From Oligoflexia bacterium (lineage in GTDB: Bacteria; Bdellovibrionota; UBA1018): DNA of 64,000 bases. The DNA lies in the NCBI GenBank assembly GCA_963758495.1, contig CAVWVI010000003.1:1536001-1600000 (forward strand). Reading direction: 5' to 3'. The notes under the pieces were generated by a model that saw nothing but the letters and a program-made list of their open reading frames with translations, was not told where the DNA came from and did no database searches. Position numbers and translations under genes: made by a program. Below are positions 4,845 through 48,212 of this stretch, one piece after another; positions within the stretch are counted from its first letter, which is position 1; each line of letters begins with the position of its first letter.

Positions 4845-5126
4845 ATGACAAGATCAAAAAAAGTAAGCCCCTCAAATTTAGAAGTTGTAGTTCGAGGTGT
4901 CGATCAACTTGGCATTGCTTTAATCCGCTTTCGACGCCAAGAAGGTTGGACTCAAGATCAAGCAGGAGAAAGATCAGGTGTAAAGCAGACGGTAATCTCT
5001 TCTGTAGAATCTGGAACGATCGGAACGCGTGTTGGCACTTTATTTAAGATTCTTGCAGCCCTTGATTTGGAAGTGGTAGTTAGAAAGCGTCGTAAGACAA
5101 CCCACTGGCCAGAGAGAAATAGCTAA
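4845..5126 (+). CDS. hipB: HipB-family XRE HTH antitoxin
   Basis: RRQEGWTQDQAGERSGVKQTVISSVESG HTH, TLFKILAALDL; stop overlaps the hipA start (TAATG). Confidence 0.9.
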   Translation: MTRSKKVSPSNLEVVVRGVDQLGIALIRFRRQEGWTQDQAGERSGVKQTVISSVESGTIGTRVGTLFKILAALDLEVVVRKRRKTTHWPERNS

Positions 5127-6424
5127 TGGCGCGGAAGAAAAAGTACAGCCGTCTAAAAGTTCTGAGTAACGGCAATCTTGTTGGCAATCTAACAAGGACT
5201 CAACTGGGCACCTTGGAATTTCAGTATGCTCAAGAATGGCTAGACTCTCCCAACGCTATGCCAATATCATACTCATTACCTCTAAGAGAGTCTCCCTATC
5301 GAGAGTTAAAAGTACAAGCCTACTTTGATAATCTACTTCCTGACAACGATGCTATTAGAACAAAGATCGCAGAAAGATTTGGTGCAGAAGGAAAGAATCC
5401 CTTTGATCTCTTAGCTTCTATTGGGAGGGATTGTGTTGGAGCTCTCCAGTTCGTACCTGAAAACGAAAGTGGAGGAGTTGGTAACGAAATACAAGGAGAG
5501 CCTCTTAAAGACACAGAAATAGCAAACATACTCAAAAACTTAAAAATTTCTCCATTGGGTTTGGATCGCAGTCGTGAGTTCAGAATCTCTCTTGCTGGCG
5601 CACAAGAAAAAACCGCTCTGCTTAAATGGAATGAAAAATGGCATCGGCCTCTCGGTGTAACCGCCACCACACATATTTTTAAACCACAAATTGGCGTGTT
5701 ACCCAACGGGATTGATCTAAGTAGCAGCGTTGAAAACGAATGGCTTTGCTTGAGGATCTGTGAATTTTTTGGATTGCCGGTGGCTCAAACAGAAATTTTA
5801 GATTTTGACGGACTCAGGTGCTTAGTAGTGGAAAGGTTTGATCGGGCGTGGTCGACAGATCGACGACACTTGCATAGAATTCCTCAAGAAGATCTATGCC
5901 AAGCGCTGGGAGCTTCTTGGACGCAGAAGTATCAACAGGAAGGTGGACCAGGAATTGTGCAAGTTATGGATTTTCTAAATTCATCAGATTTACGAGACCA
6001 AGATCGAGCGCAGTTTATGCGTACACAGCTTGTTTTTTTCCTATTGGCAGCGATAGATGGCCACGCAAAGAATTTTAGTATTACTCTACTCCCTACAGGA
6101 TTCAAGTTGACCCCACTCTATGACGTTGTATCTGCGCTGCCAGCCCTTAGTGCTCGTCAAATAGAGTCAAAAGAGGTCGAGCTTGCAATGGCAATAGGAG
6201 ATCATCGGCACTATAAGATCAGGGAAGTAATTCGACGACATTGGGAGCAAACAGCAAAGAAAGTGGGTTTTCCTCTGAGCGAGTTACAAAATATTATTGA
6301 TGATCTTCTGAGAAGAGGAGAGCAAATAGATAGCTTCATATCTGATTTAGGAAAAAAACATTCTATCAAATTTTTCGGCTCTATTATCGAAGGGATTCAA
6401 AATGGACTGAAAAAAATTCAGTAA
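5126..6424 (+). CDS. hipA: HipA-family Ser/Thr kinase toxin
   Basis: PISYSLPL, YFDNLLPD, GRDCVGAL, P-loop SLAGAQEKT, HIFKP, VVERFDR, QEDLCQALG, catalytic DGHAKNFS, PLYDV. Confidence 0.95.
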   Translation: MARKKKYSRLKVLSNGNLVGNLTRTQLGTLEFQYAQEWLDSPNAMPISYSLPLRESPYRELKVQAYFDNLLPDNDAIRTKIAERFGAEGKNPFDLLASIGRDCVGALQFVPENESGGVGNEIQGEPLKDTEIANILKNLKISPLGLDRSREFRISLAGAQEKTALLKWNEKWHRPLGVTATTHIFKPQIGVLPNGIDLSSSVENEWLCLRICEFFGLPVAQTEILDFDGLRCLVVERFDRAWSTDRRHLHRIPQEDLCQALGASWTQKYQQEGGPGIVQVMDFLNSSDLRDQDRAQFMRTQLVFFLLAAIDGHAKNFSITLLPTGFKLTPLYDVVSALPALSARQIESKEVELAMAIGDHRHYKIREVIRRHWEQTAKKVGFPLSELQNIIDDLLRRGEQIDSFISDLGKKHSIKFFGSIIEGIQNGLKKIQ

Positions 6425-6635: not shown

Positions 6636-6805
6636 AATGCACTCCTGTTTCGGTTCAACTGCAACATCTATACAAAGGACCATCAAGGGCGGATTATGGA
6701 TTGCTGCTTGTCAATATGAAGGGGAGGATGTACTTTTTTCTCGGCTCTCTCTATGTTGCGTTGCTACAACCAAGTGGCCTCCTTGTTTTGGTTTTGAGAA
6801 ACTCT

Positions 6806-9800
6806 ATGGCTAAATTGAAAAAAAGAAACGTTAATAAATCTACCTCTGCGACGAAAACTCCGAAATCGGAACCACCGTCGAGGAAGCAGTTCCCCATCGT
6901 AGGGGTCGGAGCATCCGCAGGTGGGCTCGAAGCCATAGTTCAACTGCTCACTCACCTTCCGTCCAATACGGGCATGGCACTCGTCGTGGTTCAGCATCTG
7001 GACCCCACTCACAAGAGCCTTTCCACCGAGATTTTATCAAGAAAGACTCGGATGCCCGTGGCGGAAATCAGTGATGGTATGAAGGTAGAACCAAATCATG
7101 TTTACGTCATCCCGCCCAATTGCAATCTTGCGATTATTAATGGCGTCTTGAGCCTGATGCCTCGGACTGAAGCTCGGGGCCAAGCAATGTCCATCGACTT
7201 TTTCTTCGAATCGCTTGCCCAGGAGCAAAAGAGTAAGGCCATCGGAATCATTCTTTCAGGTACGGCCTCTGACGGTACCCAAGGCCTAGAGACCATCAAG
7301 GCGGAAGGGGGGTTGACGATCGCTCAGGACCCGGCATCGGCGAAGTATGACGGGATGCCTCGCAGCGCCATCGCCTCTGGCGCGGTGGATCTGGTTCTGA
7401 CGCCTGGGCAAATCGCAGAAGAGCTAGTCCGGTTTGGGCACCATCCACTCCTGGCTCGTCAGGGGAAAGCAAAAACGCCTTCATTCGAAGGACTTGCCAA
7501 AGTCGAAGGCGACAGTCTGACCAAGATCTTCGCACTACTACGAAACCAATCTCATGTTGATTTCACCCACTACAAGCACACAACTGTCAAAAGGCGTATT
7601 GCTCGCAGAATGGTTCTTCAGAAAAAGAAGAAACTCGAAGATTACGTCAGCTATTTGCAATCGAACCCGCAGGAAGTACGAGATCTCTTTGCTGACATTC
7701 TCATCAACGTAACGGAATTTTTTCGCGATGCAGATATTTTTGCCGCCCTTAAGAATCAGCTTTTACCCGAAATCATCAAGAATAGAGCGGCCGGTTCACC
7801 CATCCGGATCTGGGTCATCGGTTGCGCCACCGGAGAAGAAGCCTATTCTGTAGCGATCGCTTTACTGGAACTTCTTGGAGACACTGCTCAAAAGAGGGCA
7901 ATTCAGATTTTTGCTACGGATATCAGTGAAAAAGCCATCCAAAAAGCTCGGGCGGGTGTATACTCAGAGAGCATTCGGAAGAATGTTTCTGAGGAACGGC
8001 TGAAGCGATTTTTTGTCAAAACTGAGACTGGGTATAAGATCAATAAGTTCATCCGGGAAATGTGCCTTTTCTCACGGCATGATGTAACGAGCGATCCCCC
8101 ATTTGCGAAACTTGATCTTATTTGCTGCCGCAATCTTCTCATCTATTTCGACTCTGCTTTGCAAAAACGAGTGCTCCCGCTCCTCAATTATGCTCTTAAT
8201 CCCGGTGGTTTTCTCTGGCTCGGTGCTTTGGAGTCGGTAGGTGACCTCTCGGTGCTGTTCAAAGTGATCGACAAGGCCAAAAAATTCTACTTGCGCGGCA
8301 CCGCTCCAGTCCTGCCCCGAGTGCAGTTCGGGGCTAGTTCCTATTTGCTCGAAAACCTAGAATCCACAGCATCGAAGTCGTCGCGAAAAACACCGGGATT
8401 GCCAGATTTTCAAAGTAAAACCGAGCAAGTGCTGATCTCTGAGTACGCGCCACCGGGTGTGGTGGTCAACAGTAACATGGAGATCATTTTGGCCAGAGGA
8501 GATACCTCACCTTATTTCAAACTGCCGATGGGACAGGTTAGTCTCAACCTCTTCAAGATGGCGAGGCCAGAGCTTGTCCCAGATCTTCGCATGGTAATAC
8601 AGGCAGCAAAAAAGAAAAATATCCGCGTTAAAAAGGAGGGATTGAGCATTCTCGATGGAGACCGGCAGAGGTTTCTTAATATCAGCGTGATTCCTATTAG
8701 AATAGAGTCCAAGGACAGAGAACGCCACTTTTGGATTCTCTTCGAGCAAGCGTCAGAACTGCTACAGTCCAGCGAATCTCCAGAGTCACCAGAGTCAAAA
8801 GCCACGTACAGACGAGGGAAACGCCCCGTGAGGAAAACCTCTGATGTGAAAGACCGGCGAATTAAGGAATTCGAACGAGAACTGGCCGAGACCAAGGCCT
8901 ATCAGCAAGCACTGGCGGAAGATCACGAAGCCACCCAGGAAGAGATCACATCCGCGAACGAAGAGCTGCAAAGTACCAATGAGGAACTCCAGAGCACGAA
9001 CGAAGAGCTGGAGACAGCCAAAGAAGAGCTTCAGTCCATGAATGAGGAGTTGACCACGGTCAACGACGAATTACAGAATCGCAACATCGATCTCATGCAG
9101 GTCAACAACGATCTTATTAATCTTCTAGGAGCCGTCGATTTCCCTATTATCATGGTAGGAGCCGATGGCCGAATCCGACGTTTCACACCCACGGCGGGAA
9201 AGTTGCTGAACCTGCGTCCAAGCGATGTGGGACGTCCCATTGGAGATATTAGACCCGATTTTGAAGGACCTGATTTGCAAACCCTCGTCTCCGATGTGAT
9301 GGAAACAATCACAGTTAAAGAGCAGGAGGTCTGCAGTCGCGAGGGACAATGGTATCGCCTCCAGGCACGTCCCTACAAGACGATAGATAACAGAATCGAT
9401 GGCGCAGTCATTTCGTTGATCGATATTACTCTTTTAAAGGAGCATCTCACCGAAAGCCAAACCGCGCTGAGATATGCGACAGCTGTCGCAGACACGCTTC
9501 CCCATCCTTTGGGGGTTGTCGATGATCAACTGCATCTACTGGCCGTAAATCCAGGATTAGCCCGCTTATTTGAGATCATGCCGAGTGAGGTCGTCGGATC
9601 AGATCTGATTCGGATTCTGAGCGGCAAAGGCTTGAACATTCCTCGTCTCCGCAAGCTCTTGATTGAGGTGATCTCAGACAATCGGTCAGTGAAAAACTTC
9701 GAAATCGAACACGACTTTGACACTATTGGCCGGCGAATCTTGCTCCTAAACGCCCAGAAAATCAGATGGCAAGACCCCCTCATGCCGAAGGCAATACTTC

Positions 9801-11056
9801 TTTCGATCGACGACATCACCGAGGGCAGAACTCTTGAGCGTACGATTGAACATGCTATGGGGCAAGAAAAAGTGGCGCGCCTCGAGGCCGAGCGCGCCAA
9901 CCAGAGCAAGGATGTTTTTCTCGCAACACTATCACACGAGCTACGCACTCCTTTGACTTCAATCCTCTCCTGGTCACAGCTTTTACAGCGCAGTCAAGTG
10001 AGTCCTGAAAAGGCCCGACACGGCTTGGAGATTATTGAACAGAACGCGCTTGCTCAAGAACAACTGATCAACGATTTATTGGATATTTCCAGAATCCAGT
10101 CTGGAAAACTATCCCTCACGTTAGTTGAAGTGAGTCCAGATGACATCGTACACGCAGCGATCGAGTCGCTTCGTCCTCGGGCTGAAAGTAAGAAAATCGT
10201 CATCCAAATGTTCAGCGACGTTAAAATCGGAAAGGTCAACGGGGATTCTGCAAGGTTACAGCAAGTGATTTGGAATCTGCTCACGAATGCGCTCAAATTC
10301 TCACCCGAGGGTAGCAAAGTCGAGGTTCATATCGCCAAGGTTCAAGAGCACGGTCACACATATGTGTCAATCCGTGTGGTCGATCATGGCAAAGGCATTG
10401 ATCTGGCTTTTCTGCCTGATATTTTTACTCGATTCAGTCAACAAGACAGCACGAGCACACGCATTCATGGTGGACTTGGGATTGGACTATCCCTTGTGCA
10501 TGATCTAGTTAAGGTTCACGGCGGAAGCGTTAAAGCAGAAAGTCAAGGATCGGGGCAAGGTGCGGTCTTTACTGTGCTTCTTCCTATGGTCCGCGAAGGA
10601 GAGCTACGAGCAGCCCTTCCGTTGGTGGGAAGCAATCAAACTGCCAAACCAGCACCGCCGGATCTTTCCGGCTTGCAGGTACTTATCGTTGATGACGAAC
10701 CTGGCTCATTGGAAGTATTTGCTGAAATCGTAAAATCCTTTGGTGGAAAACCGCTTCAATGTAGCTCAGTTCGCGATGCAATGACCCTGTTTGAAAAATT
10801 TCGACCTGACGTAGTCGTAAGTGATATCGCGATGCCTTTAGAGGATGGATACGCACTGATTCGGAAGATCCGCGCTCTTCCAAGCGAGAAGGGCGGACGC
10901 GTCCCAGCGATAGCACTGACTGCATATGCCGCACATCATGACATCGAGCGTGTCGTTGCAGCAGGATTTCAAGAGCATATGTCCAAACCAGTTGATAGTG
11001 AGAAATTTGGTTGTGCGATTGCGCGACTGGCTAAAGTTGGAGATGTACTGATTTAG
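6806..11056 (+). CDS. Second CheB-CheR-coiled coil-PAS-PAS-histidine kinase-receiver hybrid (start probably ATG 6806; the ORF track gives 6701)
   Basis: GASAGG, VQHL, SDGTQG; INVTEFFRD, GCATGEE, ICCRNLLIY; LSHELRTPL, NLLTNALKF, GGLGIGL; receiver IVDD..SDIAMP..KP; paralog of 598-4386 with an extra PAS-like segment. Confidence 0.95.
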   Translation: MAKLKKRNVNKSTSATKTPKSEPPSRKQFPIVGVGASAGGLEAIVQLLTHLPSNTGMALVVVQHLDPTHKSLSTEILSRKTRMPVAEISDGMKVEPNHVYVIPPNCNLAIINGVLSLMPRTEARGQAMSIDFFFESLAQEQKSKAIGIILSGTASDGTQGLETIKAEGGLTIAQDPASAKYDGMPRSAIASGAVDLVLTPGQIAEELVRFGHHPLLARQGKAKTPSFEGLAKVEGDSLTKIFALLRNQSHVDFTHYKHTTVKRRIARRMVLQKKKKLEDYVSYLQSNPQEVRDLFADILINVTEFFRDADIFAALKNQLLPEIIKNRAAGSPIRIWVIGCATGEEAYSVAIALLELLGDTAQKRAIQIFATDISEKAIQKARAGVYSESIRKNVSEERLKRFFVKTETGYKINKFIREMCLFSRHDVTSDPPFAKLDLICCRNLLIYFDSALQKRVLPLLNYALNPGGFLWLGALESVGDLSVLFKVIDKAKKFYLRGTAPVLPRVQFGASSYLLENLESTASKSSRKTPGLPDFQSKTEQVLISEYAPPGVVVNSNMEIILARGDTSPYFKLPMGQVSLNLFKMARPELVPDLRMVIQAAKKKNIRVKKEGLSILDGDRQRFLNISVIPIRIESKDRERHFWILFEQASELLQSSESPESPESKATYRRGKRPVRKTSDVKDRRIKEFERELAETKAYQQALAEDHEATQEEITSANEELQSTNEELQSTNEELETAKEELQSMNEELTTVNDELQNRNIDLMQVNNDLINLLGAVDFPIIMVGADGRIRRFTPTAGKLLNLRPSDVGRPIGDIRPDFEGPDLQTLVSDVMETITVKEQEVCSREGQWYRLQARPYKTIDNRIDGAVISLIDITLLKEHLTESQTALRYATAVADTLPHPLGVVDDQLHLLAVNPGLARLFEIMPSEVVGSDLIRILSGKGLNIPRLRKLLIEVISDNRSVKNFEIEHDFDTIGRRILLLNAQKIRWQDPLMPKAILLSIDDITEGRTLERTIEHAMGQEKVARLEAERANQSKDVFLATLSHELRTPLTSILSWSQLLQRSQVSPEKARHGLEIIEQNALAQEQLINDLLDISRIQSGKLSLTLVEVSPDDIVHAAIESLRPRAESKKIVIQMFSDVKIGKVNGDSARLQQVIWNLLTNALKFSPEGSKVEVHIAKVQEHGHTYVSIRVVDHGKGIDLAFLPDIFTRFSQQDSTSTRIHGGLGIGLSLVHDLVKVHGGSVKAESQGSGQGAVFTVLLPMVREGELRAALPLVGSNQTAKPAPPDLSGLQVLIVDDEPGSLEVFAEIVKSFGGKPLQCSSVRDAMTLFEKFRPDVVVSDIAMPLEDGYALIRKIRALPSEKGGRVPAIALTAYAAHHDIERVVAAGFQEHMSKPVDSEKFGCAIARLAKVGDVLI
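8939..9073 (+). repeat. Heptad repeat encoding an (EELQSTN)n coiled coil
   Basis: EEITSAN EELQSTN EELQSTN EELETAK EELQSMN EELTTVN DEL. Confidence 0.9.
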
Positions 11057-30619: not shown

Positions 30620-31012
30620 TTTTGATTTATTTAGCGGCTTTTTGAGTCAACTGCATTCTTTTTCGAAAAAGCTATTTGTTTTTTTAAATGGGGGTTCGTC
30701 CTGCTCCTATCGATATTTCATCAGTTTTTTCTCGAGATCTTGGATTTCCGACCACCAAACCCAATCCAACCTTGACACATCCTAAACAGATTAATCCCCC
30801 TAGTAATTGAACCATCCAGTAATCCATTACGCCCCCCGGCAACTTGATAAAAACAACCTCTCATACGCGCATCTCTAGTGCACTGACGTTCTATTGCACC
30901 ATGAGTCAGTTTAAGTCAAGCTGGGGTCTATGACACAGTCTAGCTATAGCATGGGGCTATGCGGTCTTATTTTTACTTAGCATAATTCAGATTTTAAAAT
31001 ATCATCTCCGGA

Positions 31013-32707
31013 ATGAGTGCGAGAGATCTACTTCAGCTTCTGGTTTTTCTAGTTCTATTACTAGTTTTGACAAGGCCATTAGGCATTTACTTGGATCGGG
31101 TCTTTGCAGGAAAGACCCATCTTTTGTTTCGCCTTTTGAGCAAGTTTGAGAATGGGATCTATCATGTTTGTAAAATCGATCCAGAAGAGGAAGAGTCCTG
31201 GAGTGGATATACAAAGAGTTTACTGATCTTCAGTGCTTTTACTTGTCTATTCACTTATGTCTGTCTTCGGCTGCAGTTCTATTTACCGCTCAATCCGCAG
31301 TTATTTGGAGCAATTAAACCAGATTTAGCAATTAATGCTACTTTTGGATATAATACAAATACTAGCTGGCAGTCTTTTGGTGGCGAAACTACAATGAGCT
31401 ATTTTTCTCAAATTGTGCCTTTGCTCTTTCAGTTTTTTATATCTCCCGCAATTGCCATGGCAGCCGCAGTTGCTATTATTCGTGGAATTTCTAGAAAAGA
31501 ATCAAAAACAATCGGAAATTTTTGGGCAGACTTATTCAGAGGGATTCTTTATATTTTATTTCCGATCAGTTTTATTTTTGCAATATTTTTGATCTCTCAA
31601 GGGGTAATTCAGAATTTTTTACCTTATCAAGAAATCACAACACTAGAAGGTGCTAAGCAAGTAATCGCCCAAGGGCCAGCCGCGGTTCAGGTCGTCATGA
31701 AACTTCTCGGTACTAATGGGGGTGGATTTTTTAATGCCAACTCTTCTCATCCGTATGAAAACCCCACTGCTCTCTGTAACTTTGTGCAAATGCTTCTCAT
31801 GATCCTTCTTCCAAGCGCTTTTGTTTATTATCTTGGAATGCAAGTAAAGAACCTCAAGCATGCTTGGTCCGTGTGGACAGTCATGTTTATTGTTTTTTGT
31901 GTGGGTGCGATTATTTGCATTCATTGTGAATATCTTGGAAATCCTATTCTCAAGAAACTTGGGGCGATTTCTTCGATAAATATGGAAGGTAAAGAAGTCA
32001 GATTTGGAATATTCAATTCCGCACTTTTTGCGAATATTACTACCGCCACTGGGTGTGGAGCAATAAACGCCGTGCTTGATAGCTTTACTCCTCTGGGAGG
32101 GGTAGTCCCCCTTCTTAATATTAAGATGGGTGAGATTATTTTTGGTGGGGTGGGGTCAGGAATTTATGGAATGCTAACATTTATTATATTAACAATATTT
32201 ATTTCAGGTCTCATGATTGGGCGTACGCCAGAGTATTTTGGAAAAAAAATTAGCATTCGTGAAATGAAGTACGTTATGTTATCTATTATTGTTCCTCCTT
32301 TCTTTATCCTTGGATTGAGTGCGATTGCCTCGAGCAATAGGACTGCCCTTTCTGCATTAGGAAATCCAGGATTCCACGGATTCAGTGAAATAATCTACAC
32401 TTATACTTCCGCCATTGGCAACAATGGGAGCACATTTGCCGGCCTTTCAACCCAATTACCCTACTGGAACTTAACTCTTGCACTAGGCATGTTTTTTGGA
32501 CGTTATTTCACGATGATTCCAATGCTGGCAGTTGCAGGTTCTCTTGTCGAAAAAAGGAGTCATCCGGTAGGCGAAGGCACGTTTCCGGCAGAGGGTCCTC
32601 TATTTATCACTCTGTTGATCGCTGTGATTTTAATCGTAGGTGCATTGACTTATTTTCCAGTTCTTGTTTTGGGCCCAATTGCAGAGCACTTTCAAATGTT
32701 GAAATGA
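31013..32707 (+). CDS. kdpA: Orphan second K+-transporting ATPase subunit A (divergent paralog)
   Basis: Full-length 564 aa; [49 protein letters not shown]; filter regions differ from the operon copy. Confidence 0.93.
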   Translation: MSARDLLQLLVFLVLLLVLTRPLGIYLDRVFAGKTHLLFRLLSKFENGIYHVCKIDPEEEESWSGYTKSLLIFSAFTCLFTYVCLRLQFYLPLNPQLFGAIKPDLAINATFGYNTNTSWQSFGGETTMSYFSQIVPLLFQFFISPAIAMAAAVAIIRGISRKESKTIGNFWADLFRGILYILFPISFIFAIFLISQGVIQNFLPYQEITTLEGAKQVIAQGPAAVQVVMKLLGTNGGGFFNANSSHPYENPTALCNFVQMLLMILLPSAFVYYLGMQVKNLKHAWSVWTVMFIVFCVGAIICIHCEYLGNPILKKLGAISSINMEGKEVRFGIFNSALFANITTATGCGAINAVLDSFTPLGGVVPLLNIKMGEIIFGGVGSGIYGMLTFIILTIFISGLMIGRTPEYFGKKISIREMKYVMLSIIVPPFFILGLSAIASSNRTALSALGNPGFHGFSEIIYTYTSAIGNNGSTFAGLSTQLPYWNLTLALGMFFGRYFTMIPMLAVAGSLVEKRSHPVGEGTFPAEGPLFITLLIAVILIVGALTYFPVLVLGPIAEHFQMLK

Positions 32708-32722
32708 AAGGTACTATTCCAT

Positions 32723-33331
32723 ATGATAAAAATAGGGTTGTTCATTTTAGTGATTCTTACTTCTCTTCTTGTGGAGGGTGCGGACCTCCAACCGATATCT
32801 CAACCGTCGCCGCAACCCTCTCCTGAACCGTCACCTCAAGTTGTGGAATCTCACGCGAATGTACCTATTGAATGTTTTTTATCAGCGAATGCATTGAATT
32901 TAAGCTTTCAGCAAAGCATTCAGCTTTGTGCTAATGCTAAGTCACTGGCTCCTATCCGGTGCTTTAATCATGGATCTCTTACCGACGATCAAAGGATCAA
33001 TCTATGTCAAGGTGCTACTTCTGAAGCCCCCAGCGAGTGCTTTGCAGAGTCTTTTGACTTGCTGTTGACTATTGATGAACGGACCAAGCTTTGTAATGGT
33101 GCAATCTTCATCAACAATGCATCTTCTGGTCGTCCGACATTAGCGACAGCCCCTGTTTATTGTTTTAGAAGAGCTAAAGAGCTACCTCTTTCCCAGGACC
33201 AAAGAGTGATTCTTTGCGCCAATGCAGATTCAGATGATCCCGTGCGATGTTTTAACCGTGCGGATCATCTAGATTTGAGCTGGGACCAACGTGTCCGGCT
33301 TTGTACACAGCTGACTCCATCAAGCTGGTAA
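32723..33331 (+). CDS. Secreted Cys-rich repeat protein (five ~29-aa repeats) after a PSPQ linker
   Basis: Signal peptide; repeats P-x2-C-F-x7-L-[TS]-x-DQR-x2-LC-x2-A; 15 bp downstream of the orphan kdpA. Confidence 0.75.
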   Translation: MIKIGLFILVILTSLLVEGADLQPISQPSPQPSPEPSPQVVESHANVPIECFLSANALNLSFQQSIQLCANAKSLAPIRCFNHGSLTDDQRINLCQGATSEAPSECFAESFDLLLTIDERTKLCNGAIFINNASSGRPTLATAPVYCFRRAKELPLSQDQRVILCANADSDDPVRCFNRADHLDLSWDQRVRLCTQLTPSSW

Positions 33332-33371: not shown

Positions 33372-33902
33372 TTAATTCTGCGATGCCGACGTTGTAATTT
33401 GTGTACACAACCTTACGCGCTGATCAGCAGTGAATCCAAGCTGCGCAGAGTTGAAAAAACAGCGAAGCGCCTCATCTGTCGTGGAGTCTGCACACAGAAG
33501 GACTCTTTGATCTAGAGTTAGAGACAGATTATTTGTAGAGTCGAAGCATTGGTTCGGATTTGTTGAAGGTGCAGTGCTACAAAGCTTAGCACGTTGGTCA
33601 ATAGTCAATCCTCGACCGTCAGAGTTTTCATAACATCGGAAAGGAGCATCGGAAGTCGCCAATTGGCAGAGACTCAGTTTTTGGGTTGTGGTCATAGTTG
33701 TTCTAGAAGTATAGGCAAAACAACGTGCAGGTGCATCGGATGTTGCACCACTGCAGAGGGTCAGTTTTTCTTTAACAGTGATGCCAGAGCCACTCATGCT
33801 CAAAACACATTCAACAGGGGGACTCACTATGAAGTCTGCAAAGGTAAATGCGCTCAGCATAAAGACATTCAGCAGCATTAAATATCTTAGCCCCATTTTC
33901 AT
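33372..33902 (-). CDS. Secreted Cys-rich repeat protein (five 29-aa repeats), paralog of 32723-33331
   Basis: Signal peptide (..AFTFA-D); exact 29-aa period; both proteins end their last repeat with DQRVRLCTQ. Confidence 0.75.
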   Translation of the reverse strand: MKMGLRYLMLLNVFMLSAFTFADFIVSPPVECVLSMSGSGITVKEKLTLCSGATSDAPARCFAYTSRTTMTTTQKLSLCQLATSDAPFRCYENSDGRGLTIDQRAKLCSTAPSTNPNQCFDSTNNLSLTLDQRVLLCADSTTDEALRCFFNSAQLGFTADQRVRLCTQITTSASQN

Positions 33903-34023: not shown

Positions 34024-36078
34024 TTAGAGTCGCATTTCAAGACTCGAGTAAACTGCTCTTCCTGGTCCGCCTGGCATAGTATTCACTCCGGGAGTATAAT
34101 AAGTTGGAACATAATAGGCAGCATCCAATAGATTGGTTCCATATAAGGCCAGTTTCATATCAGGTGTAGAGCTACTCAAGGAAAGAAGCTGTTTCAAATT
34201 CAATGTCACATTTGCCGTTAAGAGATTATAGGCAGTTGATGCAGGATTTGTGACCAAATTGGCTGGAAAAGCAATCGCGTTACTCCCGTAAGCAGTGATA
34301 TAGGAATCAAACACGCCCAGAGAAACTGACTTCAGCTCATACCCCACTCCCGCCTTTGCGATCCAAGAGGGTGTGAACGAGACCCCGGTATTGCCATTTC
34401 CATCATTACTTTCTTGATAGGTAAGAGAACCTAGAAAATAAATATTACTGGTAGGTAAATATTTGGATTCTAATTCCATGCCCATTAAATTTAACTGCTG
34501 TGAATTATAATAAGATCTGTTAGTCGCACTTCCTATTTGTGGTTCTTGAACAATTAAGCTGGACTGATGACTATAGAAAAAACCGAGAGAGGATTGAAAA
34601 CTGGGGTGATTATAAAAGAATTGAAGATCTGCTGTATCGATGAATTCAGGAGATAAACTGGGATTACCTACCACATTGACACCACCTCCCAGCGGGATAC
34701 TTGCATCTGTTTGAGGAGGTGTAGGAGCATTAAATGCTTGTCCATAGAGTGCCTTGAGTCCGAATTCAGGTGTAAAATGAGCCACAGCACCTAAACGTGG
34801 CACAAAGGAACCTGTATAAGGGGTTTGATTGAATTGAGCGCCCGCAATCAATTTAAGACCAGGGGTGAGCTGGTAGTCGAGCTGAGAATAAACAGCATAC
34901 CAATATTGGACCCAGGCTAGATTCAAGTTGTCTATTTCACCTGACATTCTGTTGATGACCACTCCTGAAACCAAATTTAAGTTGTCTATCAACTTTCCTC
35001 GAACGGTGGTTTCCCATCGACTATCGTTCGTTCTATATTGATTGATAGCAGTGGGATACCCGAGAGGTTGATTGACTGATGACTTCAAGAGTAAGTCTGT
35101 GTATCCCCCGACATTGGAAATATGTGTTTCTAAGTTCCAATTTTGAGCTAGGTCTAATTTATAACCTAAATCCAAAAAGAATTTAGTATTACTGATCCAT
35201 CCCGCAGCTCCATCCGTAGGAAGTCTCCAGTCGTATTGATTCGTGTGGCCGTAAAAAGTAGAAAGCTCCAGATTCTTATAAGCAGCGGTGGTGGTGAACC
35301 CTACGTTTCCATGTTGGTAGGCATTCCCTGAAACATTGTGTCCGGTTACAGAGTTAGCGCTTAATAGCCAGCCGTCTGTGTCTAAATATTTCAAGGCACT
35401 ACTCACTCTTAAACCCGTTTCATCTGACTGAAAGTTTGAATAAGCTTCCACTGCTTTCGTATTAAAAGTGCCGTATTTGGGCGCAACCGATAAATGAACC
35501 CCTTGATCCTTTTTAGTGATAATATTGATCACACCAGAGTATGCATTGGTGCCGTAGAGGACTGAGCCGGGTCCTTTTACAATTTCGATCTGCTGAATGG
35601 CTGAAATTGGAAAAGAAGAATAAATAGCTTGATTATAGGCTCCTATATAACTATCTCGATTGATAGGATTCCCATCCATCAGGACAAGCATATGAGTATC
35701 AAATCCTCGGGGGGTATCTCCACGAACCAGAACGGTATTATTATTGGTGAAGGTCTCATAAATAGGTAAAACACTTGCGACACGGGAAAGTAACTCCGTC
35801 AAATCATTTGCACCAAATAATTCGATTTCCTTTGTTGAGATTACACTCGTTATGCCTGGTGAGTCATAAAGGCCTTCTGATCTTTTTGAAGAAGTGCTGA
35901 CGTCAATATTCATTAATTCCTCTAAAGATAAATCCAGAAATTTTGAATTTGATGCAAGAAGGGTCGCCTGCTCGTTTTCGCTGACGGTCGCAGCAGAGAC
36001 TGAAGTCTCAATTATGGTAAAAATAAGTAATGTAAATAATACAATAGGGCCAGTGAGCAGGGTGATTTTTATCATCAT
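34024..36078 (-). CDS. TonB-dependent receptor
   Basis: DLSLEELMNIDV, plug motifs LVLMDG and IQQIEIVKGPGSVLYGTNAYSGVINIITK, GNPSLSPE, NLLD..Y. Confidence 0.9.
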   Translation of the reverse strand: MMIKITLLTGPIVLFTLLIFTIIETSVSAATVSENEQATLLASNSKFLDLSLEELMNIDVSTSSKRSEGLYDSPGITSVISTKEIELFGANDLTELLSRVASVLPIYETFTNNNTVLVRGDTPRGFDTHMLVLMDGNPINRDSYIGAYNQAIYSSFPISAIQQIEIVKGPGSVLYGTNAYSGVINIITKKDQGVHLSVAPKYGTFNTKAVEAYSNFQSDETGLRVSSALKYLDTDGWLLSANSVTGHNVSGNAYQHGNVGFTTTAAYKNLELSTFYGHTNQYDWRLPTDGAAGWISNTKFFLDLGYKLDLAQNWNLETHISNVGGYTDLLLKSSVNQPLGYPTAINQYRTNDSRWETTVRGKLIDNLNLVSGVVINRMSGEIDNLNLAWVQYWYAVYSQLDYQLTPGLKLIAGAQFNQTPYTGSFVPRLGAVAHFTPEFGLKALYGQAFNAPTPPQTDASIPLGGGVNVVGNPSLSPEFIDTADLQFFYNHPSFQSSLGFFYSHQSSLIVQEPQIGSATNRSYYNSQQLNLMGMELESKYLPTSNIYFLGSLTYQESNDGNGNTGVSFTPSWIAKAGVGYELKSVSLGVFDSYITAYGSNAIAFPANLVTNPASTAYNLLTANVTLNLKQLLSLSSSTPDMKLALYGTNLLDAAYYVPTYYTPGVNTMPGGPGRAVYSSLEMRL

Positions 36079-39066: not shown

Positions 39067-39651
39067 TCAAAGATGAAGGTTGTCCAGCTCTATATTTAAA
39101 AGTAGGACATTCACTACAGCATTTCCGAAAAGTCCCAATTGTGGCCCTTCTGTATGGTTTTTGACTAGCTTGCGAAGTTCATTAGTCGAAATTCCTCGTG
39201 CTTGAGCTACGCGGTCGACCTGAGCTTCTGCAGCTTCCGGAGAAATATGAGGATCTAACCCACTTCCAGAACTTGTGACAAGATCAACAGGAATTTCTCC
39301 CTTTTTCAAAGTAGGGTTTTCCATTAATACACGATCAATGTTCGATTTTAGTTCATCTGCCAACTTTTGATTAGTTGGACCAAAATTTGAACCCGAAGAG
39401 TTTGAAGCATCATACCCATTTCCAGTTCCTGCTGCGGAAGGTCTGCCGTGAAAATATTCTCGCTTTGTGAAGGCTTGCCCAATGAGTTTGGCTCCAATAA
39501 TTTTTCCAGCGCTATTGGAAATCATGCCTCCATTCGCTTTCTCATGAAAAAAAATGTTTCCTATAATTGTCACGAGTGCTGGATATACCCCACAAAGTAG
39601 AACTGCGAGGGTGAATGTTGCTACAAAAGAGCGATAGATCAATTTAAACAT
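39067..39651 (-). CDS. kdpC: K+-transporting ATPase subunit C
   Basis: YPALVT, LIGQAF, YFHGRPSA, SSGSNFGP, PVDLVTSSGSGLDPHIS, VNVLLLN. Confidence 0.97.
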   Translation of the reverse strand: MFKLIYRSFVATFTLAVLLCGVYPALVTIIGNIFFHEKANGGMISNSAGKIIGAKLIGQAFTKREYFHGRPSAAGTGNGYDASNSSGSNFGPTNQKLADELKSNIDRVLMENPTLKKGEIPVDLVTSSGSGLDPHISPEAAEAQVDRVAQARGISTNELRKLVKNHTEGPQLGLFGNAVVNVLLLNIELDNLHL

Positions 39652-43535: not shown

Positions 43536-43622
43536 TTATTTCAGCTTCTCACAAGCTTTAATAAATCCAATTCCTGCACCGAAACAGATGAGTAAGAAAC
43601 ATAAATTCATTAGATCAGTCAT
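43536..43622 (-). CDS. Second hydrophobic peptide, 28 aa: MTDLMNLCFLLICFGAGIGFIKACEKLK (KdpZ-like; not in the ORF track)
   Basis: Translated by hand; AAGGA RBS; single TM segment with a C-terminal CEKL; first ORF of the kdp transcript. Confidence 0.75.
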   Translation of the reverse strand: MTDLMNLCFLLICFGAGIGFIKACEKLK

Positions 43623-43672
43623 AAGACCCAATCCTTCTCAAATTAAATGCATTATGTTCTAAGTTCCCACAC

Positions 43673-43689
43673 AGCAAAGTCTGGGCCAA
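43673..43689 (-). promoter_or_regulatory. Sigma-54 promoter of the kdp operon
   Basis: Minus strand TTGGCCCAGACTTTGCT = TGGC-N7-TTGCT, about 50 bp upstream of the first ORF; an NtrC-family activator is encoded divergently. Confidence 0.8.
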
Positions 43690-43936: not shown

Positions 43937-45067
43937 ATGGTAAATCAATTTGATGAGATTCTCGAGCGCCGAAAAAAGGGCTCTTTAAAGATATACCTCG
44001 GCTATGCCGCAGGTGTGGGTAAAACCTATGCTATGTTACAAGAAGCCCACCGCTTAAAGTCGCGTGGTTTTGACGTGGTGATTGGTTATTTAGAATCCCA
44101 TGATCGTGCTGATACAATCAACCAGATATTCGACTTGGAGGTGGTTCCGCGCCGCTATTTTACTTTCGGAGAACGATCTTGCGAGGAAATGGATATAGTT
44201 GGCGTCATTAAGCGGAAGCCTCAGATTGTGTTAGTCGATGAGCTCGCTCACACAAATGCTCCAGGGTCGAAAAACGAAAAGCGTTACCAAGATATTCTCG
44301 AGTTATTAGATCAGGAAATCAATGTTATTTCGACCATGAACGTCCAGCATTTGGAATCGGTAGCAGATAAGGTGAGTACTGGAACGGGGGCTGTTATTAG
44401 AGAGCGAGTACCTGACCTTATATTACAAAGAGCAGATCAAATTGTTAATGTCGACGTCTCCATTGAAGACTTGAGAGAAAGACTTAGAACTGGAAAAATT
44501 TACAAACAAGATCAAGCAGAGCGCGCACTTTTAAATTTTTTTTCCAATGCAAATCTCTCTATGCTGAGAGAATCGGTACTTAAAGAGGCGGCAGGAGATC
44601 AAAATAGAAGAATTGACGAACAGGCTCTTTTATCTCAGCAGGCTGCAAAACTTTCTCATGAGACTGTAATGGTATGTTTGAGTTCTGATCCAACCAATGC
44701 AGAAGTTCTCATCAGGCGCGGAACTAAAATGGCCGTTCAACTCTCAAGTCGCTGTTTTGTAGTTTATGTTCAAAGAAAAGCAGAACGCCCAACGACTATT
44801 GATGCGGCTCTTCAAAGAAAAATACAGAATAATCTTACTTTGGCAAAACAGCTTGGGGCTGAGGTAGTGACTCTTCAGGGAGATGATATCTCAGACGTAT
44901 TGGTTAATTTTGCGAGTGAAAATAATGTCCGCCATGCAGTATTTGGAAAATCTCGATTGTCGCCAATTAAAGAACGAATAAGAGGATCCGTAATCTTGAA
45001 TTTTACTTATGATGGCGTGGGTGTAGATGTACATATTCTAAGTACTATTGAAGGAAAACTTTCATGA
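43937..45067 (+). CDS. kdpD: Stand-alone KdpD N-terminal sensor (KdpD domain plus Usp domain); no TM or kinase part
   Basis: GSLKIYLGYAAGVGKTYAML, LVDELAHTN, KRYQDI, NVQHLES, RERVPD; Usp-like C-terminus VMVCLS...LAKQLGAEV...FGKS. Confidence 0.92.
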   Translation: MVNQFDEILERRKKGSLKIYLGYAAGVGKTYAMLQEAHRLKSRGFDVVIGYLESHDRADTINQIFDLEVVPRRYFTFGERSCEEMDIVGVIKRKPQIVLVDELAHTNAPGSKNEKRYQDILELLDQEINVISTMNVQHLESVADKVSTGTGAVIRERVPDLILQRADQIVNVDVSIEDLRERLRTGKIYKQDQAERALLNFFSNANLSMLRESVLKEAAGDQNRRIDEQALLSQQAAKLSHETVMVCLSSDPTNAEVLIRRGTKMAVQLSSRCFVVYVQRKAERPTTIDAALQRKIQNNLTLAKQLGAEVVTLQGDDISDVLVNFASENNVRHAVFGKSRLSPIKERIRGSVILNFTYDGVGVDVHILSTIEGKLS

Positions 45068-46830
45068 AACCTATTGAGCCAATCTTTTCTTATCCTCCCC
45101 TGAGAAAAATTGTATTCAAACACTCACTCTTAATTATTGGCCTTTATACATTAGTGGGTGTGGTCATGATGGGAGCAGTCTTCTTGGCTAGCGGAATAAC
45201 ACCTAAGTTGATTCATTTGAATTATGATTCGATTGCAGCGGCAACGCAAATGAATACCGCTTGGGAAGCTCTTAAAAATCCGCAAGATCATAATGAAAAG
45301 CCTCAGATTGCATGGATCAAGGAATTTGATGACGCAATCTCATTTGAAGATCGCAATATTTCTGAACCTGGTGAGCAAAAAATTGCAAAAAATATTCGAA
45401 ATTTATGGATTACAGCTCAAAAGAATATCAATCAAATTGATCCACTCACCTTTAAAGAGATGAGATCCTATTTGAGTGAGTTAATTCACATCAATGAAGT
45501 CGGGATGTTTAATTTAGCGATAGACAGCAATATATTAAGTCATCGTGCCTTTATTGTAAGTACATTGCTTTTTGTCTTTTCAATTTTATTATCCCTCTAT
45601 TTAGCAGATAATCTTGCGATTACTATTACTACTCCAATAAAGGAACTTGCGGAAACACTGAGGCGTAAACCTCTTCCTGGTTCTAAGCTTAAGCTCCCAA
45701 AACCCACAAGTCTGGAAATGCGAATATTCACTCATGAAATGTTACAGCTCTGGGAGCGGGTTTCAGAGCTTCAGAAACTCAATTTGGAAAAGATATTTTC
45801 CCAGGGGAAAAAACTAGAAGCCGTATTATCATCAGTTGATGATGCTATTTTAGTTTTAGATAATCAAGATCAAGTCATTCATTGCAATCAAGGCATGGTT
45901 AAGTTAATTGGCTTGGATTTGAGTGACATCCTGGGTCAATGCTGGCAAGATCTCCCATCATTGAGTGCGAATTACATTCAACTGAGAAATTTGTTAAAAC
46001 CTGATATTATAAGCGATCAAGTCGCTGAGTTTGAGTTAGATCAAAGAATGAGAGTGTTTTCAGGTAGGTGTCGTCCATTCTTTGATGAGCAAGGACGCCA
46101 AATTGGATCCATTTATCTCCTTCATGATATAACGGAAATTCGACAAAAAGATCGACTCAAAGCTGAATTTATTGGGGTCCTTTCTCATGAACTTAAAACT
46201 CCACTTCAATCCTTAGGAACCGCATCTGAAATCCTCTTTGAGCGAAGAAATAAATTGGAAGAGGAGGAGAAAATGCTTCTCGAAACGATACATGAAGATG
46301 TAGGTCGAATCCGTGCAGTAGCAAATGAATTTGTCCAAGTAGGGTTGGTGGATCTTCACTCTTTGAGGCTTAAACTTGAAAAAGTGCCTATGAGCGATTT
46401 TCTTCCTCAATGGATACAGCCTTTTCAAGTTTTGGCAAAAGACAAAAATATAAAAGTACAATTTATCAAGGAAGGCTCTAACGTTATATTAGCTCAGATT
46501 GATACGGTAAAATTTCCCTGGTCAATTTCTAATCTGATTTCAAATGCAATTAGGGTATCACCCTTAGACGGGACAGTCATTGTTCGTTTGTCGGATCGAG
46601 AAAGTAGGGTAGATATTGACGTTATAGATGAAGGTCCTGGAATTTCTGAAGAAAATCAGAAAAAAATATTTGATCCTTATTTTCAAGGGAGCAAGGAATT
46701 GAGTGGTTTCTTAGGGCTGGGGCTAACCATTACTAAGGAGGTTGTTGAGGCACATGAAGGGCGAATTGAATACTATCCGAAACAACCTTACGGCTCTATT
46801 TTTAGAATTTCTCTGCCTTTGCCAGTGTGA
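45064..46830 (+). CDS. Membrane sensor histidine kinase (periplasmic domain, HAMP-like, PAS, HisKA, HATPase)
   Basis: Two TM helices, VDDAILVLD PAS, LSHELKTPL, NLISNA, DEGPGI, GLGL; ATGA overlap with kdpD. Confidence 0.93.
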   Translation: MKPIEPIFSYPPLRKIVFKHSLLIIGLYTLVGVVMMGAVFLASGITPKLIHLNYDSIAAATQMNTAWEALKNPQDHNEKPQIAWIKEFDDAISFEDRNISEPGEQKIAKNIRNLWITAQKNINQIDPLTFKEMRSYLSELIHINEVGMFNLAIDSNILSHRAFIVSTLLFVFSILLSLYLADNLAITITTPIKELAETLRRKPLPGSKLKLPKPTSLEMRIFTHEMLQLWERVSELQKLNLEKIFSQGKKLEAVLSSVDDAILVLDNQDQVIHCNQGMVKLIGLDLSDILGQCWQDLPSLSANYIQLRNLLKPDIISDQVAEFELDQRMRVFSGRCRPFFDEQGRQIGSIYLLHDITEIRQKDRLKAEFIGVLSHELKTPLQSLGTASEILFERRNKLEEEEKMLLETIHEDVGRIRAVANEFVQVGLVDLHSLRLKLEKVPMSDFLPQWIQPFQVLAKDKNIKVQFIKEGSNVILAQIDTVKFPWSISNLISNAIRVSPLDGTVIVRLSDRESRVDIDVIDEGPGISEENQKKIFDPYFQGSKELSGFLGLGLTITKEVVEAHEGRIEYYPKQPYGSIFRISLPLPV

Positions 46831-48212
46831 AGGATTCTAAAAATGGAAGGGATTTAAATATGGCGACCGATAATTTTCTTAAAGTACTCTTAGTGGACGA
46901 TGATTTAAATATATGCCGGACCCTGAATATTAGTTTGAAATCTTTAGATTGTAGAGTAACCCAGGCCCATTCTGTTACCGAAGCTACAGTCATTCTTAAA
47001 AGTCAAACCTTTGATTTAATCCTGACCGATTTTCGAATGGGAGACTCAACTGGAAGTGATTTAATTAAAGAGGCAAAGAAGTTGGATCCTCAATGCCTTA
47101 TTGCGGTCATGACTGCTTTTGCTTCGATCGATAATGCAATTGAAGTCACTAAAGTCGGTGCATTTGATTACCTTCCAAAGCCGTTTACACAGACTCAGCT
47201 CACTCATTTACTCAAAAAAGTAAAATTAGTTGTTTCATTAAAACAAGAGAATGAAAGATTAAAGAGATCCGAAGGTAATCGTCTTCTTTTTTCAGGTTTT
47301 ACTTCGGTAGCTAATCAAAGACTGGAGGAATTTGTAAACAAAGTAGCTCCTACGGATGCTACAATATTGCTTACAGGTGAGAGTGGAACAGGTAAAACGG
47401 AGCTTGCTCGGCTTCTTCATCAAAGATCTCAACGAAGTTCTAAGCCCTTTATAGTAGTTAATTGTACAAGTCTTGCTGAATCTCTTTTAGAGTCAGAAAT
47501 ATTTGGCCATGTTAAAGGAGCTTTTACAGGAGCTATTCAAGATAAAACGGGAAAATTTGAATTAGCCAATCATGGCACGCTTTTTTTGGATGAAATTGGA
47601 GATTTATCATTAAATTCTCAATCAAAACTTCTTCGTTTTTTACAAGAGAAGGTCATTGAAAGAGTGGGAAGTAATCACAGTATTTGTATTGATACAAGGG
47701 TCGTTGCAGCCACCAATAAAAACCTAATTGAAGCGGTGGAGCGTGGTCAATTTCGAGAGGACCTTTATTATCGGCTTAATATTTTTGAATGCACCTTAGT
47801 GCCCATTCGTCATCGCAGGGAAGATCTTCCTGTCTTAATTCAAAAATTTATTATGGAGTTCAGTAGGTTAGCTCACCTGCCTCAACCTCCTTTTATTTCC
47901 GAAAATGTTATGGAAACTTTATTAAAGTACAGCTGGCCAGGAAATATACGAGAAATCAGAAATGTTATGGAGCGCGTAATACTCCTTTCCGCAGGTAGAG
48001 AAGTTAAAATGAGTGACCTGCCTGATCAGATCGTCATCCCAAGAAAGACGTCATTATTTAAAAGTGAATCTCTCTTACCTCTTGCTGAAATAGAGCGTGC
48101 CCATATCAGCAAAATTTTGGAATTAGAGCCAAATCAAGAAAAAGCAGCCGAAATTTTAGGCATCACTAAAGTCACTCTTTGGAGAAAGCGGAAAGAGTAT
48201 GGGTTGCCTTAA
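46827..48212 (+). CDS. Sigma-54-dependent NtrC-family response regulator
   Basis: Receiver LVDDD..LTDFRM..KP; GESGTGKT, GAFTGA, LFLDEIG, FREDLYYRL, WPGNIRE; Fis-type HTH AAEILGI...LWRK. Confidence 0.96.
   Translation: MKDSKNGRDLNMATDNFLKVLLVDDDLNICRTLNISLKSLDCRVTQAHSVTEATVILKSQTFDLILTDFRMGDSTGSDLIKEAKKLDPQCLIAVMTAFASIDNAIEVTKVGAFDYLPKPFTQTQLTHLLKKVKLVVSLKQENERLKRSEGNRLLFSGFTSVANQRLEEFVNKVAPTDATILLTGESGTGKTELARLLHQRSQRSSKPFIVVNCTSLAESLLESEIFGHVKGAFTGAIQDKTGKFELANHGTLFLDEIGDLSLNSQSKLLRFLQEKVIERVGSNHSICIDTRVVAATNKNLIEAVERGQFREDLYYRLNIFECTLVPIRHRREDLPVLIQKFIMEFSRLAHLPQPPFISENVMETLLKYSWPGNIREIRNVMERVILLSAGREVKMSDLPDQIVIPRKTSLFKSESLLPLAEIERAHISKILELEPNQEKAAEILGITKVTLWRKRKEYGLP

Follow-up and report, generated by a model that had tools for sequence, protein, structure and literature searches.

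A conserved orphan KdpA paralog with an altered pore beside a complete kdpFABC operon in an Oligoflexia bacterium

The analysed stretch of 64,000 nucleotides (the window) belongs to an Oligoflexia bacterium of the Bdellovibrionota (assembly GCA_963758495.1, contig CAVWVI010000003.1, positions 1,536,001 to 1,600,000). It carries a complete kdpFABC operon and, on the opposite strand at a distance of 9.0 kb from the operon kdpA, a second, orphan kdpA gene. KdpFABC is usually treated as a fixed four-subunit complex encoded by one operon. The orphan product is a real, conserved variant of a known pump subunit, and change at its conserved sites is enriched in the pore modules beyond chance. The variant is apparently undescribed; no description of an extra KdpB-less KdpA was found in the literature searched, in which subscription journals are thinly covered. 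Single residues and substitutions are numbered as in E. coli, by alignment to the K-12 record.

Two kdpA genes and a single kdpB

The genes concerned are the following.

31013..32707, forward strand: orphan kdpA paralog (type X, see below), 564 amino acids, without kdpF, kdpB or kdpC of its own; recognized by an unbroken open reading frame (ORF), PF03814 and the predicted fold
39067..39651, reverse strand: kdpC, sole copy found in the genome
39662..41686, reverse strand: kdpB, sole copy found in the genome
41707..43416, reverse strand: canonical operon kdpA, 569 amino acids; PF03814, 796.9 bits
43429..43518, reverse strand: kdpF-like ORF of 29 amino acids immediately 5' of the operon kdpA; named by eye from position, size and hydrophobicity, with no profile

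The KdpA family PF03814 covered the orphan protein end to end (726.6 bits against a cut-off of 22.6; positions 2 to 548 of the 548-position profile), and no other Pfam family matched it. Neither kdpB nor kdpC was found beside the orphan, where the kdpFABC arrangement is absent, and none of the small ORFs 5' of it was judged by eye to encode a KdpF-like product. The genome (five contigs, 92% complete) contained two KdpA, one KdpB and one KdpC. The initial annotation had described a second intact kdpA, 9 kb from the complete operon, on the opposite strand and without kdpB, kdpC or kdpF, and the ORF, Pfam and genome searches confirmed this, the absence of KdpF resting on inspection by eye.

The orphan resembles KdpA of E. 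coli KdpFABC (PF03814; PDB 7NNP, 5MRW and 6HRA) in its full-length family match, predicted fold and most filter residues, but it differs in lying outside a kdpFABC operon, as a second copy beside a canonical one in a genome with a single KdpB. It thus belongs to the KdpA family and not to a kdpFABC operon. Duplicates of the whole kdp operon occur, for example in Acidithiobacillaceae (PMC8886135). More than one kdpA per genome is found there as here, but the extra clusters described in that source carry kdpB and kdpC, and the orphan has neither.

The operon is ordered kdpF-A-B-C and is followed by two BBP2 porin genes and a TonB-dependent receptor gene. The receptor gene (34024-36078, reverse strand) has a 97.5% identical copy at 207.5 to 209.4 kb of contig C1, indicating a recent duplication. 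A small hydrophobic ORF of 31 amino acids lies 5' of kdpF (43536-43631, reverse strand).

Departures from conserved residues cluster in the pore

The pore modules were delimited on the predicted structure as each pore helix plus six residues (103-120, 223-238, 332-352 and 453-474). Conservation was scored against 180 KdpAs (195 collected minus nine type X and six type Y sequences); this reference set leans to close relatives, is mostly of unknown gene context and includes one KdpB-less gene (L016). At the 212 sites conserved in at least 85% of the set, the orphan departed at 14 of 48 pore sites and 19 of 164 other sites (Fisher P = 0.0046), and at the sites conserved in at least 95% it departed at 10 of 37 and 6 of 90, respectively (P = 0.0032). 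The operon copy departed at none of the 48 pore sites and at 5 of the 164 others. Pore modules accounted for 42% of the orphan's departures, compared with 14% in the 43 reference proteins with at least 15 departures (maximum 32%, in L016). The concentration of changes in the pore proposed initially was therefore borne out by per-site scoring.

Overall, the two copies were identical at 348 of 569 columns (61%; 64% at the DNA level). Identity was 68% in the pore modules (52/77) and 61% outside them (296/487), so that the non-pore segments are not nearly identical, as had been claimed; the stretches quoted for that claim were selected ones. Sixty reference proteins that have diverged from the operon copy outside the pore about as far as the orphan has had a mean pore identity to it of 86%, and none fell below 74%.

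The direct K+ cage is almost intact

The altered segments of the orphan gene, all on the forward strand, are as follows.

31319..31372: first pore helix and filter loop (D1), residues 103-120; T105A, A106T, S108G, F109Y, V110N and N114S, with N112, T113, W115 and Q116 kept
31418..31447: start of helix D1M2, residues 136-145; G132P, N137F and A141P, in all eight type X members
31679..31726: pore module D2, residues 223-238; S221V, A224V and I225M, with the filter TNGGG kept
32006..32077: pore module D3 and following loop, residues 332-355; A342T, S343G and H351L, with C344 and G345 kept
32369..32434: pore module D4, residues 453-474; A459T and A470T, with NNGS (N466-S469) kept

Further changes were Y118F, M350V, F494Y and V496T; E370, G374, S378, R400, R493, V538, L541 and N239 were kept. 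All four pore motif changes quoted in the initial annotation are present in the sequence, and TNGGG (T230-G234) is retained as it had stated. The change from NNGSAF to NNGSTF is real in the orphan but is not fixed in type X, where T, A, S or V occupies the position.

Thirteen residues were scored as the filter core (N112, T113, N114, Q116, T230, N231, G232, S343, G345, N466, N467, G468 and S469). The orphan kept 11 of them, N114S and S343G being the changes. The main site, S3, is described as formed by the carbonyls of N112, T113, T230, S343, C344, N466 and N467, and S4 as lined by A342, S343, G374, S378 and N466 (bioRxiv 2025.03.04.641403); S1 uses N239, Q116 and G468 (PMC6255902). The orphan retains six of these seven S3 residues, and the seventh, altered by S343G, contributes through its carbonyl. 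The direct K+ cage, as read from the alignment, is thus almost intact, and the changes lie on the S4 side (A342T, S343G), at N114 and in the packing of the first pore helix. Changes of this kind would be expected to reshape the filter. As almost every residue that lends its backbone carbonyl to the main K+ site is retained, the orphan probably continues to move mainly K+.

The predicted model of the orphan had a mean predicted local distance difference test score of 92.5, from an input alignment that contained canonical KdpAs, and matched 7nnp_A with Z 58.1 and a root mean square deviation of 1.3 Å over 557 residues at 48% identity. The four pore-helix and filter repeats of the KdpA fold were found in it. 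The four-repeat pore fold is common to the orphan and to KtrB, TrkH and HKT of the SKT superfamily (Z 16-28), which work without an ATPase. In contrast to KdpA, these proteins share 9 to 18% identity with the orphan, which keeps the KdpB-coupling segment.

Mutants of E. coli provide a precedent for the effect of a KdpA change alone on affinity (ATPase Km from 0.04 to about 21 mM) or selectivity with coupling to KdpB kept (PMC12629597). According to that source, Q116R lowered the affinity with no loss of selectivity, and G232D admitted Rb+ and NH4+ with little Na+. The initial annotation had cited these two residues rightly as determinants of affinity and selectivity, but both are unchanged in the orphan, whose changes sit at neighboring and second-shell sites. 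Na+, one of the ions it had suggested, is unlikely, since even G232D has little Na+ activity (PMC12629597).

The KdpB-facing surface is retained

32126..32251, forward strand: KdpB-facing segment of the orphan, with the E370 equivalent, the intramembrane loop, the coupling helix D3M2 and the GRTPEY motif (the R400 equivalent is R404); retained

The list of KdpB contacts (R400, the coupling helix, F386, L389, L422, V538 and L541) was drawn from PMC6255902, where R400 is described as bridging to the KdpB P domain and the KdpA pore as shut to the cytoplasm. R400, V538 and L541 were kept in all eight type X members, and the positions of F386, L389 and L422 were hydrophobic as in the reference set. 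The tunnel or vestibule charges E370 and R493 were likewise found in 8/8, and N239, G374 and S378 were also kept in type X. These kept residues (R400, E370, R493, N239, G374, S378, V538 and L541) are placed in the tunnel or at the KdpB interface by PMC12629597, PMC6255902 and bioRxiv 2025.03.04.641403. Identity of type X to canonical KdpAs, relative to identity among canonical KdpAs, was 0.72 versus 0.85 in the coupling segment and 0.68 versus 0.80 in the C-terminal helix, compared with 0.58 versus 0.73 over the whole protein and 0.61 versus 0.89 in the pore modules. By this measure the KdpB side of type X lost the least identity and the pore the most. No consistent type X shift was found in the charge counts of the extracellular loops.

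These results bear on the suggestion that the orphan is a passive K+ channel or an ion sensor that operates without KdpB. The gene is solo in both of its known loci, and no TrkH/KtrB gene (PF02386) was found in the genome, whereas 11 of 14 control genomes were positive. Sardesai and Gowrishankar reportedly observed in 2001 that an N-terminal fragment of KdpA improves K+-limited growth. However, the KdpA-type intramembrane loop, the coupling helix and R400 are kept, and the closed cytoplasmic side of the KdpA pore in structures (PMC6255902) does not fit a free channel. Other KdpB-less kdpA genes occur in genomes that have kdpB, twice with a kdpC of their own, and this genome has a Kup transporter gene for low-affinity uptake. 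No gene with an RCK domain was found among the orphan's neighbors. A KdpB-independent channel, raised in the initial annotation, is disfavored by the above-average conservation of the KdpB-facing segments, and a channel or sensor function appears quite improbable on these sequence features.

Type X is an old subfamily with a conserved pore

Type X comprises eight proteins, namely the orphan, P0003 (78% identity), P0004 (76%), and P0007, P0038, P0051, P0070 and P0087 (58-62%). The ORFs of all eight are unbroken. A sister group, type Y, has five members (P0021, P0031, P0079, P0081 and P0094). Members of both groups were taken from the best 120 of 8,000 scored homologs. All eight first-repeat states (T105A, A106T, S108G, V110N/H, N114S, G132P, N137F and A141P) were present in 8/8 type X proteins, and further changes of the group were I225M/L, A342T/S, F494Y, V496T and, in six of eight, S343G. 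Among the 180 reference proteins and 132 scorable distant representatives, none carried more than two of the eight first-repeat states, and the combination is thus absent from both sets.

The groups were first picked by motifs, so that motif sharing within them is partly circular, and a tree without the pore columns served as the independent test. In this tree of 45 of the 195 proteins, rooted on the long E. coli outgroup branch, type X (support 95/89), type Y (100/95) and X plus Y (100/99) were recovered, and the operon copy fell in a separate canonical group (98/92). All of these lay within one clade of 35 rows (99/98). An approximately unbiased (AU) test rejected a clade of the two window copies, with a log-likelihood lower by 199. 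The proposal that the orphan is an in-lineage duplicate of the operon kdpA was thus not upheld by the tree or the AU test; the duplication is old and common to the subfamily. That the operon copy gave rise to the orphan by a recent duplication, or overwrote it by gene conversion, was likewise rejected, since 78 of 120 fourfold sites differ between the copies in addition to the tree and AU results. A recent foreign acquisition was also considered and rejected, because codon use was at the 43rd percentile and GC content at third codon positions at the 41st percentile of 1,510 long ORFs. The closest organism-named homologs were from Bdellovibrionota.

Compared with its ortholog P0004 (locus L022), the orphan had a saturated proportion of synonymous differences (pS) of 0.78 and a nonsynonymous divergence (dN) of 0.17. 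The dN was 0.065 in the pore modules and 0.187 outside, the same pattern as in four canonical pairs (0.017-0.074 in the pore and 0.152-0.201 outside). This indicates that the pore changed early and was then held. With dN far below synonymous divergence (dS) and lowest in the pore, the altered pore is under purifying selection, and decay is unlikely.

The orphan could nevertheless be what is left of a second kdp operon on which selection has relaxed, or an ordinary KdpA with a kdpB partner in sequence missing from the assembly. It departs at 33 of the 212 conserved sites, compared with a reference-set median of 6, the subfamily is rare and patchy, and the genome is 92% complete. Against this, the reading frames are intact in 8/8, dN is low with saturated dS, and the eight first-repeat states are fixed in the clade. 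The orphan sits in the middle of a 1.68-Mb contig among unrelated neighbors, and the surroundings of L022 likewise lack kdpB and kdpC (none within 10 kb upstream or 6.5 kb downstream). The decay reading is largely refuted by the comparison of dN with dS, and a relic or a missing partner together retain a small probability.

The neighbor genes at L022 differ from those of the orphan. A heavy-metal-type P-type ATPase with a C-terminal VTC domain is encoded 2.4 kb 3' of the solo kdpA there (L022, 14075-17335, forward strand). The common source of P0007 and the canonical protein P0022 suggests that the two may share one contig.

Type X is rare. A profile search for more members found none, and a GTDB scan with the subfamily motif yielded 39 stretches and four relatives, none of type X. 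Among 401 genomes of the phylum, 116 of the order and those of two other classes (38 and 14), only the bacterium's own genome carried it. No type X was found in viral contigs, and the best plasmid match was 52%.

All five type Y proteins carry N112G, N114A, Q116T, T230S and G233E, and S108G is shared with type X. Judged by these residues, the type Y filter is the more strongly rebuilt, and a changed ion would be more plausible for type Y than for the orphan. For the orphan itself, a retuned filter on the shared KdpB motor might pump NH4+, Rb+ or Cs+ besides or instead of K+. When G232D distorts the filter, Rb+ and NH4+ are transported in a coupled manner (PMC12629597), both A342 and S343, which line S4, are altered, and the sister type has the stronger filter changes. 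A search of the genome for an Amt ammonium transporter had no match, whereas all 14 control genomes were positive; at 92% completeness, this absence is weak evidence. However, G232, G233, G345, G468, Q116 and N239 are unchanged in the orphan, and the genes neighboring it at the two known loci are unshared and have no link to nitrogen. A changed ion is considered unlikely for the orphan.

The orphan is probably controlled separately

43673..43688, reverse strand: sigma-54-type -24/-12 site of the kdp operon, matching 11 of 13 consensus positions

The site was scored against the sigma-54 -24/-12 consensus. A site of this type lay 217 to 275 bases 5' of kdpA in 8 of 10 related canonical loci; one locus had it at other distances, and one had no upstream DNA. 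No comparable site was found 5' of the orphan (best match 6/13) or at L022 (best 8/13). A promoter shared with the operon was rejected as well, since no upstream similarity exceeded that of shuffled sequences (153, 164 and 82 of 200 shuffles scored as high). Separate control of the orphan and the operon is likely, judging from these upstream regions.

The different promoter region is compatible with a regulatory or dummy subunit, which would bind KdpB or KdpC, conduct poorly and either lower pump activity or hold spare KdpB when K+ is plentiful. An altered filter support combined with conserved KdpB-facing parts would fit such a role. In contrast, conservation of the altered pore matches that of canonical pores, and the presence of E370 and R493 in every type X member goes beyond what a plug would need. 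This role is regarded as improbable.

Scans for sigma-70 promoters and terminators gave results at chance level. A weak sigma-70-like site (9/12; window 30977-31013, forward strand), of a kind expected at chance frequency, ends 7 bases 5' of the orphan ATG. GGA abuts this ATG, and a leaderless transcript is possible. A split set of regulators faces the kdp operon (43937-48212, forward strand). It consists of a KdpD N-terminal sensor that carries a Usp domain, a histidine kinase with PAS and a response regulator of the sigma-54 type; the sigma-54-type site of the operon lies 5' of kdpF.

KdpB-less kdpA genes occur in other lineages

The gene context of kdpA was compared at 128 distinct loci, each with an unbroken kdpA followed by 1.2 kb or more of sequence, and loci were classed as KdpB-less by adjacency. 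Five of them had no adjacent kdpB: the window, L022, L016, L135 (a Ralstonia megaplasmid) and L153 (genome G654). Two or more changes among the 13 core filter residues were found in 5/5 KdpB-less loci and in 11 of 123 kdpB-linked loci; the sample is not random, L135 having come from a search with a divergent query, and chlamydial loci with low scores having been included deliberately.

In two further genomes the count was likewise two KdpA to one KdpB, and the additional KdpA was altered. Genome G654 has one canonical operon with its only kdpB, and an extra kdpA (L171/L153) paired with kdpC, with T113A, S343G and N466D. Genome G345 also has a canonical operon and one kdpB, and its second kdpA (L119/L137), followed by kdpC only, has N112T, N114T, S343A and S469Q; it spans two contig ends and was left out of the count of 128. 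P0178 is a KdpC-KdpA fusion of this second type. Positions 112-114 and 343 have thus been altered repeatedly across separate lineages with KdpB-less kdpA.

The divergent KdpA family with N112T, N114T, S343A and S469Q (P0144, P0178, P0242, L119, L137 and L135) is encoded by solo genes, by genes accompanied by kdpC alone or as part of a KdpC-KdpA fusion. L135 is NZ_CP146092.1 627502-629202, from a cultured Ralstonia strain. In Chlamydiota, L178, L180, L181 and L182 (genomes G518, G552, G648 and G558) are full kdpABC operons whose KdpA has N114D, Q116E, T230S, further changes in the filter and an altered GRTPE motif.

Other genes near the orphan

On one side of the orphan lies a Na+/H+-exchanger gene in divergent orientation, and on the other a small Cys-rich gene. 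The latter (32723-33331, forward strand) is convergent with a related one (33372-33902, reverse strand); both encode Cys-rich repeat proteins with likely signal peptides and without a Pfam family, and two further paralogs lie near 94.3 to 95.5 kb of contig C1. The downstream Cys-rich gene was considered as a partner of the orphan and rejected, as it is not kept in L022, has paralogs in the genome and has no Pfam family or Atlas hit of at least 0.9. Farther away, two large genes encoding CheB-CheR-PAS-kinase-receiver fusions (598-4386 and 6701-11056, forward strand) flank a HipA-like gene (5126-6424).

Interpretation and significance

As the genome has one KdpB, an alternative KdpA on the shared motor is the simplest reading, and it is preferred to the readings in which the orphan serves as a regulatory dummy, works as a free channel or sensor, or is decaying or has a partner that the assembly misses. 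According to PMC12629597, KdpB is promiscuous, and it is the KdpA filter alone that determines affinity and selectivity. The orphan would dock on the single KdpB together with KdpC and KdpF, its assembly and expression being presumed. K+ would probably remain the main ion. The fixed changes next to the filter and at its rear (first pore helix, N114S, N137F, S343G and A342T) would reshape the support of the filter, and this may shift the apparent affinity, probably downward, or the turnover; the direction is one that we infer. That the orphan is such an alternative KdpA, still moving K+ with a shifted affinity or rate, is given a probability of about 0.5. An alternative KdpA on the shared motor, whether for K+ or for a changed ion, is probable. 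The interchangeable selectivity subunit of the initial annotation thus stands as far as a functional, divergent paralog with pore-clustered changes is concerned, and its use of the same KdpBC is the most plausible arrangement.

Several observations weigh against this interpretation. Single states recur in distant KdpA representatives (S343G in 16/147, H351L in 43/145, A141P in 22/142 and N114S in 6/136), so that little weight can be placed on any one of them. The alteration of 19 of the 164 conserved non-pore sites means that divergence extends outside the pore. Of the eight type X members, two have a known gene context, the one in this window and the one at L022. The 11 kdpB-linked loci with divergent filters all came from the Chlamydiota sample; they show that solo genes are not the only ones with filter changes, and a filter may therefore change without the gain of a new function. 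Lastly, as the orphan lacks the operon's sigma-54-type site and any shared upstream motif, coexpression with kdpBC is not indicated.

A natural second KdpA on the same KdpB, if confirmed, would represent in vivo use of the promiscuity of KdpB. One motor with two filters in one genome would offer a paired test of how the pore helix and the second shell tune the unusually high K+ affinity and the K+/Rb+ discrimination of this pump, and lone kdpA annotations would then not be mere operon debris. More tentatively, KdpFABC may be modular, in that several lineages independently evolved KdpB-less KdpA (or KdpA plus KdpC) cassettes with rebuilt filters that serve one KdpB motor for another affinity or another ion, such as NH4+, Rb+ or Cs+. 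If so, the pump would be a P-type ATPase with a substrate that depends on which of several exchangeable channel subunits it carries; the orphan would belong to one such family of cassettes, next to a sister family (type Y) with a still more rebuilt filter.

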